From Escherichia coli (lineage in GTDB: Bacteria; Pseudomonadota; Gammaproteobacteria; Enterobacterales; Enterobacteriaceae), in NCBI RefSeq assembly GCF_024223415.1, contig NZ_CP100500.1: a DNA stretch of 64,000 bases. One strand, written 5' to 3'. The position numbers are program-made. Numbering within the stretch: position 1 is the stretch's first letter; every line of letters starts with the position of its first letter. Below are positions 34,801 to 40,800 of the stretch, piece by piece.

Positions 34801-37800
34801 TTTCTTGTTTACCAGCACTTCGCGATCCTGATCGCGAATAATGAAAATTTGTGTGCGCGGCGCAACCTGGCTGCGGAACATGCGGATCTCATACAGCTCG
34901 TTATTGATCGTCGCCTGAATAATCCCCTGATGCTGTTCCGCCATGGTGGTGATGTTTTGCAGATTCAAATGCGGCAGCAAATGATCGGCAATTTTGTTAC
35001 TTATGACAGTGCGGTTCGATTCCTGATCGTGAACCAGCAGGCCGAGCGGCAGCAGTGAGACTATCTCTTCATTGATTGCCCGTAAAATGCGCAATTCGTT
35101 ATTGACCGCCGTGCTGGGGACGCTTTCTGTACTGCGGCTGGAGAAATGGCGGAATGTGGTATAGCCAAATAACGCCAGCGCCAGCAAACCGATGTTCAGC
35201 AGCAGTGGCAGCAGAATGTTTTGCAACGTATCCAGCAGTAAGGTGCCATAAGGAACCTGCCAGACCAGTCGCATATCGGTAGAGTTGAGTGCCGAGGAGA
35301 TTTCAATCTTCGTACTGTTAAAGTGGATACTGACGCTATCCGTCCCTTCTTTCTCATTATCATTGTCTCCCGTTGCCGTCGCGTCTGGCTCAAGGCGGAA
35401 ACTGTCCAGCGGCATACCCGGTGGGATCAAATCATTAATCGGCAGATCAAAAGCCACGACCGTTGCCAGATGTCCCGGCTGGTTGAACGTGGTACGCAAG
35501 GTAAAGTAATGACCGTTCTGCCAGGCCAGGCGGCGCATGTTAGAAAAACTTTCGCGTTCATCGAGGGCGTTGGCCTGTTGCAACATCTCTGCACGACGTG
35601 AATCAACAATGTCACTGACGGTCGATTCTTTAAATCCGGAGGTGAGATCTTTGAGGGGCAGGGTTGAGATCAGCACCAGACTGTTATCCTGACCATTCAG
35701 GTAATACATTGACCACGGTACATTTTCTGCGCCCCACAATGTGTCCAGATAGGTGGACATCCGCTGAGTCATCTCAAGCGTTGAGTTGTCGTGAGAGCCA
35801 AAGATTAACGCTTCCGTTTTGCGACGCGGTTTTTCCAGATAGTAGACATCCTGTTTCAGGCGCGTCTCTTGTAAACCTTCGCCGGAGGAGGGGGAGGTCG
35901 TCGCGGCAATGTTGTCGTAGATCTGCCAGGTCACGTAACGCCAGGTATCGACGCGCTTTTGGATAGCGTGGGTAATGTCGACAATCTGGTAACTTTTATC
36001 TTTCAGCCAGGCGTTAACGGCGCTTTGTACCATTACCCCCATCGTCACCAGTAACACAATGATCAACAGTAAAAAGAAGCGGGTAATGCTCCCCGGTAGG
36101 AGTGAAAAGCGGGTCGTGGCCGTTGTCTCTTTCTGACGCATTCGTGTTTATGACCTGTTAAAACTTCGCGAAGTGATAGGGCAGTATAAAGGGTACAGTG
36201 TGAAATTCCAGACTCTTACCTGATTGATGATTCTCTATTCTCCCGTGATATTTATCATCCTGCATTGGGGGAAATAGATGTACAAGCGCCATTTTGCTGT
36301 ACAAATAACCTACAAAAAGCCCAACGAAAATAATTGCAAATAAACAAAGATTGCTGGAAATTATGCTGATGTTAATTATTTGTGAAATAGTTAACAAGCG
36401 TTATAGTTTTTCTCTGGTAGCACAGAATAATGAAAAGTGTGTAAAGAAGGGTAAAAAAAACCGGATGCGAGGCATCCGGTTGAAATAGGGGTAAACAGAC
36501 ATTCAGAAATGAATGACGGTAATAAATAAAGTTAATGATGATAGCGGGAGTTATTCTAGTTGCGAGTGAAGGTTTTGTTTTGACATTCAGTGCTGTCAAA
36601 TACTTAAGAATAAGTTATTGATTTTAACCTTGAATTATTATTGCTTGATGTTAGGTGCTTATTTCGCCATTCCGCAATAATCTTAAAAAGTTCCCTTCTA
36701 TTTACATTTTGAAACATCTATAGCGATAAATGAAACATCTTAAAAGTTTTAGTATCATATTCGTGTTGGATTATTCTGCATTTTTGGGGAGAATGGACTT
36801 GCCGACTGATTAATGAGGGTTAATCAGTATGCAGTGGCATAAAAAAGCAAATAAAGGCATATAACAGAGGGTTAATAACATGAAAGTTAAAGTACTGTCC
36901 CTCCTGGTCCCAGCTCTGCTGGTAGCAGGCGCAGCAAACGCTGCTGAAGTTTACAACAAAGACGGCAACAAATTAGATCTGTACGGTAAAGTAGACGGCC
37001 TGCACTATTTCTCCGACAACGATAAGGTTGATGGCGACAAGACCTACATGCGTCTTGGCTTCAAAGGTGAAACTCAGGTTACTGACCAGCTGACCGGTTA
37101 CGGCCAGTGGGAATATCAGATCCAGGGCAACGCTCCTGAAAGCGAAAACAACTCCTGGACCCGTGTGGCATTTGCTGGTCTGAAATTCCAGGACGTTGGT
37201 TCTTTCGACTACGGTCGTAACTACGGCGTTGTTTACGACGTAACCTCCTGGACCGACGTGCTGCCAGAATTCGGTGGCGACACCTACGGTTCTGACAACT
37301 TCATGCAGCAGCGTGGTAACGGCTTCGCGACCTACCGTAACACCGACTTCTTCGGTCTGGTTGACGGCCTGAACTTTGCTGTTCAGTACCAGGGCAAAAA
37401 CGGTAGCGTAAGCGGCGAAGGCATGACCAACAACGGTCGTGATGCTCTTGAGCAGAACGGTGACGGTGTTGGTGGTTCTATCACTTATGACATCGGTGAA
37501 GGCTTCAGCTTCGGTGGTGCGATCTCCAGCTCCAAACGCACCGCAGAGCAGAACAACAGTGCTCGTTTCATCGGTAATGGTGATCGTGCAGAAACCTACA
37601 CTGGTGGTCTGAAATACGACGCTAACAACATCTACCTGGCTGCTCAGTACACCCAGACTTATAACGCAACTCTGGCTGGTGATTTAGGCTGGGCGAACAA
37701 AGCCCAGAACTTTGAAGTGGTTGCCCAGTATCAGTTCGACTTCGGTCTGCGTCCTTCTGTTGCTTACCTGCAGTCCAAAGGTAAAAATCTGAATGCCAAC

Positions 37801-40800
37801 ATCGCTGGTCGTACTTACGACGACGAAGATCTGGTGAAATATGTTGATGTTGGTGCTACCTACTACTTCAACAAAAACATGTCCACCTATGTTGATTACA
37901 AAATCAACCTGCTGGACGACAATAACTTCACCCGCGCTGCTGGCATCAACACTGATGACATCGTAGCTCTGGGTCTGGTTTACCAGTTCTAATCTCGATT
38001 TCTATCGAACAAAGGGCCTGCGGGCCCTTTTTTCATTGTTTTCAGCGTACAAACTCAGTTTTTTGGTGTACTCTTGCGACCGTTCGCATGAGGATAATCA
38101 CGTATGGAAATAAGCTTTACCCGCGTGGCACTGCTGGCTGCCGCGCTCTTCTTTGTTGGTTGCGATCAAAAACCACAACCCGCCAAAACCCACGCTACTG
38201 AAGTTACCGTTCTTGAAGGCAAAACTATGGGTACCTTCTGGCGTGCCAGCATCCCGGGCATTGACGCCAAACGCAGCGCCGAACTTAAAGAAAAGATTCA
38301 GACCCAGCTGGACGCCGACGATCAGCTGCTTTCGACCTATAAAAAAGATTCCGCGCTGATGCGCTTTAACGATTCGCAAAGTTTATCGCCGTGGCCGATA
38401 AGTGAAGCGATGGCCGAAATCGTCACTACCTCGCTGCGCATTGGCGCAAGGACCGATGGCGCGATGGATATAACCGTCGGGCCGCTGGTGAATCTGTGGG
38501 GCTTTGGCCCGGAACAACAGCCGGTTCAAATTCCGAGCCAGGAACAGATCGATGCGATGAAAGCCAAAACCGGCTTACAGCACCTGACGGTCATTAATCA
38601 GTCGCATCAGCAATATCTGCAAAAAGACCTGCCGGATTTATATGTCGATCTCTCCACCGTCGGTGAAGGTTATGCGGCGGATCACCTGGCACGCTTGATG
38701 GAGCAGGAAGGGATTTCCCGCTATCTGGTGTCGGTGGGCGGCGCGCTGAACAGCCGTGGTATGAACGGTGAAGGCCAGCCGTGGCGGGTAGCGATTCAAA
38801 AGCCAACCGATAAAGAAAATGCGGTTCAGGCCGTGGTGGATATCAACGGTCATGGTATTAGCACCTCTGGCAGCTACCGTAACTATTACGAACTGGACGG
38901 CAAACGTCTTTCCCATGTTATCGATCCGCAAACCGGGCGTCCCATCGAACACAATCTGGTATCTGTGACGGTGATTGCTCCGACGGCGCTGGAAGCCGAT
39001 GCCTGGGATACTGGCTTGATGGTCCTCGGGCCGGAGAAAGCCAAAGAGGTTGTTCGCCGGGAAGGGCTGGCGGTTTATATGATCACCAAAGAAGGCGATA
39101 GCTTTAAAACCTGGATGTCACCACAGTTTAAAAGCTTCCTTGTCAGCGAAAAAAATTAAAGCGCAAGATTGTTGGTTTTTGCGTGATGGTGGCCGGGCAG
39201 ACTAAAGGCTATCCTTAACCAGGGAGCTGATTATGAAAAACGCCACATGCTTAACTGACGATCAACGCTGGCAATCTGTCTTAGCCCGCGACCCGAATGC
39301 CGACGGCGAATTCGTTTTCGCCGTGCGCACCACAGGCATCTTTTGCCGTCCGTCTTGCCGCGCCAGACATGCTTTGCGGGAAAACGTCTCCTTCTACGCA
39401 AATGCCAGCGAGGCACTCGCCGCCGGATTTCGCCCCTGCAAACGCTGCCAACCTGATAAAGCCAATGCCCAGCAACATCGGTTGGATAAAATCACCCACG
39501 CGTGTCGACTGCTGGAACAGGAAACGCCTGTAACGCTGGAAGCCTTAGCCGACCAGGTGGCGATGAGTCCGTTCCATCTGCATCGGTTGTTTAAAGCGAC
39601 TACCGGAATGACGCCTAAAGCCTGGCAACAGGCCTGGCGCGCTCGCCGTTTGCGCGAATCGCTGGCGAAAGGGGAGAGCGTGAAGACGTCTATTCTTAAT
39701 GCCGGATTCCCCGACAGCAGCAGTTACTACCGCAAAGCCGATGAAACGCTGGGCATGACGGCTAAACAATTCCGTCACGGTGGCGAAAATCTGGCGGTGC
39801 GTTACGCGCTGGCTGATTGTGAGCTGGGTCGTTGCCTGGTGGCAGAAAGCGAGCGGGGGATTTGCGCGATATTGCTGGGCGATGATGACGCGACACTAAT
39901 CAGCGAGTTGCAGCAGATGTTTCCCGCTGCCGACAACGCGCCTGCCGATCTGACGTTTCAGCAACATGTGCGTGAAGTGATCGCCAGCCTCAATCAACGC
40001 GATACGCCGCTGACGTTACCGCTGGATATTCGCGGCACTGCTTTTCAGCAACAAGTCTGGCAGGCACTGCGCACGATACCTTGCGGTGAAACCGTCAGTT
40101 ATCAGCAACTGGCTAACGCCATCGGCAAACCGAAAGCGGTACGGGCCGTTGCCAGTGCCTGTGCCGCCAACAAGCTGGCTATCGTAATTCCCTGTCATCG
40201 AGTGGTCCGTGGTGATGGCACACTTTCCGGTTACCGCTGGGGCGTGTCGCGTAAAGCGCAACTGCTGCGCCGCGAAGCTGAAAATGAGGAGAGGTAATGT
40301 TGGATCTGTTTGCCGATGCTGAACCGTGGCAAGAGCCACTGGCGGCTGGTGCGGTGATTTTACGGCGTTTTGCTTTTAACGCTGCAGAGCAACTAATCCG
40401 CGATATTAATGACGTTGCCAGCCAGTCGCCGTTTCGCCAGATGGTCACCCCCGGGGGATATACCATGTCGGTGGCGATGACCAACTGTGGGCATCTGGGC
40501 TGGACGACCCATCGGCAAGGTTATCTCTATTCGCCCATTGATCCGCAAACAAATAAACCGTGGCCCGCCATGCCGCAGAGTTTTCATAATTTATGTCAAC
40601 GTGCGGCTACGGCGGCGGGCTATCCAGATTTCCAGCCAGATGTTTGTCTTATCAACCGCTACGCTCCTGGCGCGAAACTGTCGCTGCATCAGGATAAAGA
40701 CGAACCGGATCTGCGCGCGCCAATTGTTTCTGTTTCTCTGGGCTTACCCGCGATTTTTCAATTTGGTGGCCTGAAACGTAATGATCCGCTCAAACGTTTG

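Follow-up and report, generated by a model that had tools for sequence, protein, structure and literature searches.

The ompC gene at 36880..37992 (plus strand) of a 64,000-nucleotide stretch of Escherichia coli DNA (contig NZ_CP100500.1 of assembly GCF_024223415.1; the whole stretch is called the window here) is very probably a functional porin gene that carries a rare, already known recombinant of an EC11-like and an Escherichia fergusonii-type allele, which has since been moved by homologous recombination. The product would be a trimeric, 16-stranded general-diffusion osmoporin of the outer membrane. The first ~590 nucleotides, from the signal peptide through extracellular loop L4, appear to stem from a common E. 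coli allele type like that of strain EC11, and the last ~530 nucleotides, from β-strand b8 to 10 nucleotides past the stop codon, would come from a class found in E. fergusonii and a few E. coli. By this join the surface loops L5-L8 would have been exchanged as a block and the constriction loop L3 kept. Homologous recombination would later have carried the hybrid to several E. coli backgrounds and to one genome of Escherichia whittamii.

Mosaic structure of the ompC allele

The 5′ module (36880..37470, plus strand) comprises strands b1-b7 and loops L1-L4 and is of the common E. coli type represented by EC11 (WP_000865564.1). In a segment comparison, 36700-37470 differed from EC11 at only 3 of 771 nucleotides, and the DNA stays almost the same as in the EC11 and EC4100B allele from near the promoter to the end of L4, which is of type c4 in both and has Glu at the position of Arg195 of K-12. 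From ~37471 onwards the EC11 type differs, with a DY-EGFGIG turn, an L5 with DAQNTAAY and an L7 with GTIGTRN, and 84 of 532 positions are different over 37471-38002. The 3′ module (37471..38002, plus strand), comprising b8-b16 and L5-L8 and ending 10 nucleotides past the stop codon, is of the class found in E. fergusonii. Over 37471-37550 it showed 1-3 differences in 80 nucleotides to E. fergusonii, to the E. coli strains E2348/69 and MB53 and to a genome designated L006 (see below), compared with 18-20 to EC11 and K-12. Over 37576-37840 there were 10-13 differences in 265 nucleotides to the E. fergusonii class and 43 to EC11. Taken as a whole, the 3′ module differs by 1-5% from E. fergusonii, L006, E2348/69 and MB53, and by 13-30% from EC11 and K-12.

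The alleles of E. fergusonii (P0001, WP_223663334.1) and of E2348/69 and DEC1A (WP_000865540.1) have the same periplasmic turn T4, L6 (NATLAGD), L7 and L8 as the window allele, and their DNA is 96-98% identical to it over 37576-38002. They differ in having another 5′ half, a longer L4 (GMTGVTNNGRDVLEQ) and a shorter L5 (NNYG-IGNG). The tip of L5 (37551-37575) stands apart, with 7-11 differences in 25 nucleotides to all E. coli, E. fergusonii and L006 alleles compared. It is identical in the E. whittamii genome (L005) and matches neither parent. K-12-like sequence resumes from 38003-38004, and the 3′ junction lies between the ompC stop codon and the hairpin behind it.

When EC11 and E. fergusonii were taken as parents, all 53 informative sites to the left of the junction at 37467-37494 were of the EC11 type, whereas 59 of the 66 sites to its right were of the E. 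fergusonii type (Fisher p = 2e-26, before correction for 118 possible breakpoints). The synonymous divergence (dS) from K-12 was 0.12 in the 5′ half and 0.50 in the 3′ half, the latter being a distance at the interspecies level, and that from E. fergusonii was 0.375 and 0.18, respectively. The ratio of non-synonymous to synonymous divergence (dN/dS) was ~0.17-0.19 in both halves, with no gene-wide sign of positive selection. As for the population, the segment 37000-37400 is part of a continuous E. coli diversity: 60 genomes match it with an identity of 99% or more, and 1067 do so at 95-99%. For 37570-38002, an identity of 90% or more was seen in just 38 of the 5426 E. coli genomes (0.7%), with 5391 at 80-90%, and an identity of at least 99% over 37401-37575 was confined to the 29 genomes that bear the allele. 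The sharp parental switch, the jump in dS and the outlying 3′ segment together argue that the gene is a mosaic, that is a recombinant join of two allele classes and not the result of accumulated point changes.

The allele is already known and is rare. RefSeq WP_000865563.1 is the exact protein and is annotated in SCU-316, O169:H41, O125ac:H10 and 19SZHZ869Rt. At least 1000 public contigs carry exactly this protein, and the UniRef entry B0LTA0_ECOLX is among its names. Among 5426 complete E. coli genomes, an ompC of at least 99% identity was found in 29, and in five of these the DNA, annotated as ompC, was 100% identical; the next allele was 92.8% identical. The hosts of the allele are mostly commensal or animal isolates.

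Two other origins of the gene were considered and rejected. Import of the whole gene from E. fergusonii, the closest representative at 90% clustering, does not fit the first ~590 nucleotides, which are of the EC11 type and lie at a dS of 0.375 from E. fergusonii. The metagenome protein P0003 is identical to the window allele from residue ~193 to the end and was a candidate for the 3′ donor. It was given no weight, since it comes from a single metagenome contig that stops 190 nucleotides past ompC and may be a chimeric assembly. Other mosaics that reuse the modules were observed as well (L004/P0002, L088/P0003 and P0006), of which the metagenome-derived ones may be assembly chimeras. Among them, the same 5′ half and T4 occur together with K-12-like L5-L7, and the same 3′ module occurs with another 5′ half and a K-12-like L4.

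Loop differences, predicted fold and Glu191

A first-pass annotation of the window had described the gene at 36880-37992 as an ompC allele of 370 amino acids, compared with 367 in K-12, which differs from K-12 in predicted surface loops. The intact open reading frame (370 amino acids plus stop) and the comparison with ompC of K-12 MG1655 (L001), the product of which has 367 amino acids, agree with these lengths. The four peptides quoted there are present at residues 172-199, 204-213, 262-274 and 303-318. In the alignment, the termini and almost every barrel residue matched K-12, in line with what had been stated, and so did the signal peptide. The small internal indels that it mentioned were also recovered. 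The window OmpC differs from K-12 OmpC in 41 alignment columns (mature-chain identity 88%), made up of 30 substitutions, a deletion of four residues in L4, the single inserted residues G206 in T4 and R229 in L5, and five residues inserted in L7.

Three of the differing columns are in L1, three in L2, none in L3, eight in L4 (the four-residue deletion counted), six in L5, three in L6, seven in L7 and three in L8, and the other eight lie outside the loops in strands and in the periplasmic turn. The loops L1, L2 and L4-L8 hold 33 of the 41 differences while being 29% of the mature residues (binomial p = 1e-11), and every indel except one is found in the extracellular loops. The assignment of the differences to the surface loops was therefore right for these 33 columns. 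Three of the quoted peptides correspond to L4, L6 and L7, whereas the one at 204-213 consists of turn T4 and the ends of b8 and b9. Mapping to L4-L7, as had been suggested, does locate differences in these loops, but L1, L2 and L8, which had not been listed, differ too, and four conservative changes are in b12, b13 and b14. The changes outside the loops are all conservative: I205, the inserted G206, S210 and F211 in the area of T4, V280 in b12, V294 in b13, and L318 and V319 at the top of b14. The turn form D[IL]GEGF occurs in 60 of 120 cluster representatives, Citrobacter included.

The loop and strand topology was taken from a secondary-structure assignment (DSSP) of an AlphaFold2 model, which was made from an 80-sequence alignment of diverse porins and had a mean predicted local distance difference test (pLDDT) score of 91.9. 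Residue numbers refer to the precursor of the window allele. In this predicted structure there are 16 β-strands and a 29-residue L3. A Foldseek search with the model gave template modelling (TM) scores of 0.95-0.98 and root-mean-square deviations of 1.2-1.5 Å to OmpC and OmpK36 crystals (0.95-0.97 and ~1.5 Å for OmpC alone), with a TM score of 0.96 to 2J1N.

In the model, and on the plus strand throughout, L1 comprises codons 46-55 (37015..37044) with three substitutions relative to K-12 (D48, K49 and K54), and the latching loop L2 comprises codons 83-91 (37126..37152), also with three substitutions. Glu66 of L2 (mature numbering), the role of which in the latching loop is treated by Beck et al. 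2016 (PMC5056734), is retained. The constriction loop L3 (codons 116-144, 37225..37311) has no difference to K-12 and a wild-type G137. Mature positions 16, 37, 74, 105, 109 and 124, which we take to be the eyelet residues of K-12 OmpC, are the same as in K-12, as is all of L3. Loop L4 (codons 172-195, 37393..37464) is four residues shorter than in K-12 and of type c4 of Beck et al. 2016. The region of T4 (residues 207-208) and the b8 and b9 ends, with the sequence IGEGFSF, covers codons 205-211 (37492..37512) and has the one-residue insertion. It is followed by L5 of type a9 (codons 220-235, 37537..37584), L6 (codons 262-273, 37663..37698; substitutions L265, A266 and D268), L7 of type l (codons 303-315, 37786..37824; inserted residues N305 and N307-G310) and L8 (codons 344-360, 37909..37959; substitutions N349, A353 and D360).

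The loop types have been catalogued by Beck et al. 2016 (PMC5056734) as receptor variants for CdiA-EC536, and the window allele is the combination L4 c4, L5 a9 and L7 l listed there. In Table S2 of that work, WP_000865563.1 is given for strain KTE196 with L5 type a9, and the L4 c4 and L7 l sequences are found under other alleles. According to that article, at least 220 OmpC variants were counted in E. coli, L4, L5 and L7 are hypervariable modular receptor epitopes that occur in many combinations, and recognition by CdiA-EC536 is decided by L4 and L5. The view of ompC as a hypervariable locus, expressed in the first-pass annotation, agrees with this. The passages of the article consulted describe no parentage of the window allele and no relationship to E. 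fergusonii or E. whittamii.

In L4, codon GAG (37450..37452, plus strand) encodes Glu191, which is aligned with Arg195 (CGT) of K-12. It has been reported that Arg195, a conserved residue of L4, is exposed to the vestibule of the pore, that R195L lowers β-lactam susceptibility, and that OmpC of phylogroup D and sequence type 38 (ST38) carries G137D together with R195E and was spread by recombination (Patino-Navarrete et al., PMC6970295). The window allele resembles the ST38-like allele in being an ompC moved between lineages by recombination and in having Glu at the Arg195 position, and, like the low-permeability alleles with R195L or R195E, it has lost the positive charge at this position. 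The L3 substitutions G137D and G132D of such alleles are absent, G132 and G137 both being wild type. Compared by its published description, the ST38-like allele differs in having G137D in L3 and a measured low permeability. The nearest relatives of the window allele are the EC11-type and E. fergusonii-type alleles, and both the EC11-type parent, an ordinary allele, and E. fergusonii have Glu at the Arg195 position. By analogy to the published alleles, Glu191 in the L4 vestibule might lower the entry of some β-lactams.

G137D itself was seen in other clusters. Seven of the 120 closest OmpC cluster representatives (P0055, P0113 and five others) carry DTYDSDN, which is G137D in L3. Two of these clusters have 717-1025 member sequences, and G137D is linked to carbapenemase-producing lineages.

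Exchange between lineages and competing explanations

The allele was found in a second Escherichia species. E. whittamii Sa2BVA5, the species representative, showed two differences from the window over 36731-38000, and its ompC is 99.8% identical. It stays at a within-E. coli distance through apbE (~98%) up to ~39295, while its rcsD (~88%) and ada are at 81-94% identity to E. coli. The E. coli-like tract measures ~2.5 kb (2350-4920 of the Sa2BVA5 sequence, corresponding to window 36731-39295). Transfer from E. coli to E. whittamii is the likely direction, since the sequence of the 5′ half is common in E. coli and apbE, which also lies in the tract, is E. coli-like. With an ompC identity of 99.8%, the window itself was also considered as E. 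whittamii DNA. This was rejected, since its flanks are 97-100% identical to K-12, 21 kb are 100% identical to E. coli KV7 and rcsD of E. whittamii is only ~88% identical. The stretch shared with KV7 (NZ_LT795502.1; pig faeces, Denmark) is window 26880-47992.

Within E. coli, the genomes O169:H41, O125ac:H10 and 19SZHZ869Rt have an ompC that is 99.7-99.8% identical to that of the window, but apbE, ada and alkB at 97.7-98.4%, and upstream of rcsC they have yfaP and yfaQ instead of ato. ompC, usually the most variable gene of the neighbourhood, is the least diverged one here, which fits a recent transfer between lineages. In these backgrounds (L090-L092), yfaP, yfaQ and an alpha-2-macroglobulin gene are directly upstream of rcsC, where the window and K-12 have atoS, and the ato operon is absent.

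The ompC flanks of E. fergusonii share only 60-90% identity with the window. In E. coli MB53, upstream DNA with 99% identity to the window is followed by an ompC, an ompC-apbE spacer and an apbE that match E. fergusonii at 97-98%, and this apbE has 84% identity to that of the window. By its sequence, the MB53 tract (808-3101 of L086, NZ_CP073939.1; at least 2.3 kb) is a clear case of import into E. coli. Contig NZ_JAATUR010000027.1 (L006), named E. coli SCPM-O-B-8794, has ompC flanks that share 88-91% identity with the window and 90-99% with E. whittamii. This genome, a separate species representative, is probably a cryptic-clade Escherichia. A literature search, confined to one searchable library, for ompC exchange with E. 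whittamii or for intragenic recombination of E. coli ompC gave nothing directly relevant.

How the allele came about could be explained in other ways. Had it descended vertically from a K-12-like ompC, by point mutations and indels under diversifying selection on the loops and with no recombination, the differences would be expected to concentrate in loops, as they do, and phage and immune selection on ompC is indeed reported (PMC5056734). Such a history is nevertheless very improbable, as dS to K-12 differs fourfold between the halves (0.12 and 0.50), parental affinity switches (53/53 against 59/66 informative sites), the flank is back at 98-100% K-12 identity at most 2 nucleotides from 38002, intermediates for the 3′ segment were not found among the 5426 genomes, and dN/dS is ~0.17-0.19 on both sides. 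An assembly chimera or a pseudogene is hardly conceivable. Some related mosaics (P0003 and P0002) are metagenome-assembled and could be chimeric, but the window has an intact reading frame, five independent complete genomes are 100% identical to it and 29 are at least 99% identical, and the exact protein is present on at least 1000 contigs. The 3′ module might instead be an old balanced polymorphism native to E. coli, from which E. fergusonii and other Escherichia received it. This would account for the class being present in the E. coli lineages E2348/69, MB53, Rb-50 and A25 and in the non-coli L006, for an identity of just 95-98% between the window module and the sampled E. fergusonii gene, and for the apparent receipt of the hybrid by E. 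whittamii from E. coli. We consider it unlikely, as the class is present in 0.7% of the complete E. coli genomes, yet in both E. fergusonii-like sequences compared (P0001 and P0005), and the MB53 tract reaches into apbE (97% identical to E. fergusonii, 84% to E. coli), which only an import into E. coli explains. It is similarly doubtful that a reduced antibiotic permeation, as in the ST38 or phylogroup D allele, and not a change of receptor or epitope, is the main significance of the allele. Glu191 at the Arg195 position speaks for it, but G137 and the whole L3 are wild type, the published R195E precedent is not isolated from G137D, the ordinary EC11-type parent and E. fergusonii have Glu as well, and the hosts are mostly commensal or animal isolates.

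We therefore prefer an EC11-like and E. fergusonii-type recombinant that was subsequently moved between backgrounds, although several points weigh against parts of this explanation. The sampled E. fergusonii strain, judged by a 3′ module that is just ~95-98% identical, is not the donor, and a transfer out of E. fergusonii as the ultimate source is a tentative reading, as the class also occurs in E2348/69 and the non-coli L006. For E. whittamii, the direction of the exchange is read from a single genome. The placement of the loops comes from a predicted model and not from a crystal of the window allele. Effects on phages, contact-dependent growth inhibition (CDI), antibodies and drugs are deduced from other alleles, and the published low-permeability allele of phylogroup D carries G137D in addition, which the window allele lacks.

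OmpC loops are docking sites for phages, CDI toxins and antibodies, and the pore admits β-lactams, so the allele of a strain bears on the host range in phage therapy, on kin recognition and on drug entry. The join of the two modules would present a different set of surface epitopes to OmpC-docking agents, such as phage tail fibres, class II CdiA and antibodies, with the basic pore function kept. A precedent for phage fibres was among the structure matches, namely the gpJ-OmpC complex 9wcb. In other respects the window allele adds little, as it fits the published modular shuffling of loops and is an ordinary, catalogued member of a hypervariable family. What is added here is the exact parentage with its junction at 37467-37494, the occurrence of the hybrid in another Escherichia species, and the connection of Glu191 to a published permeability determinant. 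A wider reading, which we find quite possible and put forward tentatively, is that porin loop cassettes circulate across Escherichia species, the E. fergusonii-type b8-b16 module with L5-L8 having been grafted onto an E. coli ompC at L4/b8, the hybrid having spread to several E. coli backgrounds and then having been exported in the 2.5-kb tract to E. whittamii. If evasion of phages or of CDI were the driving force of such exchange, ompC would serve as a pool of receptor epitopes shared across the genus. Provided that the cassette reading is true, Glu191 might add a modest permeability cost or benefit.

Gene identity and chromosomal setting

The window gene is ompC at its usual chromosomal position, and its regulatory DNA is normal. 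The protein encoded by the coding sequence at 36880..37992 (plus strand; 370 codons plus stop), WP_000865563.1, scored 755 bits with the NCBIfam model NF007841 'porin OmpC' (cut-off 484), whereas OmpF (473 bits) and PhoE (461 bits) each remained under their own cut-off, and it matched Pfam PF00267 (Porin_1) with E = 8e-142. It aligned end to end with solved OmpC chains (PDB 2J1N, E = 4e-200). The mature chains in the PDB start at residue 22 of the window OmpC, and residues 1-21 are those of K-12; together, the alignment and these chains place a signal peptide identical to that of K-12 at codons 1-21 (36880..36942, plus strand). The C-terminus reads LVYQF and thus ends in Phe. K-12 OmpC (b2215, PDB 2J1N) has the same locus, regulatory region, signal peptide, L3 and C-terminal Phe, and the same fold as that predicted for the window protein.

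The neighbours of ompC are canonical, with rcsB and rcsD on the opposite strand, micF, and apbE (ftp), ada, alkB and yojI downstream. The micF antisense small RNA gene lies divergently to ompC at 36453..36546 (minus strand; Rfam RF00033, 116.8 bits), and a terminator-like hairpin followed by a T run is found 3′ of ompC at 38011..38030 (plus strand). In a DNA alignment of ~9 kb the flanks were 97-100% identical to K-12, the ompC/micF regulatory region was 98-100% identical, and only within 37000-38002 did the identity drop to 73-96% per 100 nucleotides.

Further downstream, an IS3-family insertion sequence (IS) element is located at 44970-46330 between mqo and eco, and it is annotated in KV7 as an IS1397 transposase with a programmed frameshift. 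Most E. coli genomes are without this ~1.4-kb element and cover 93% of the 21-kb query; a coverage of 100% was confined to KV7, O78 strain 3 and NCTC9112.

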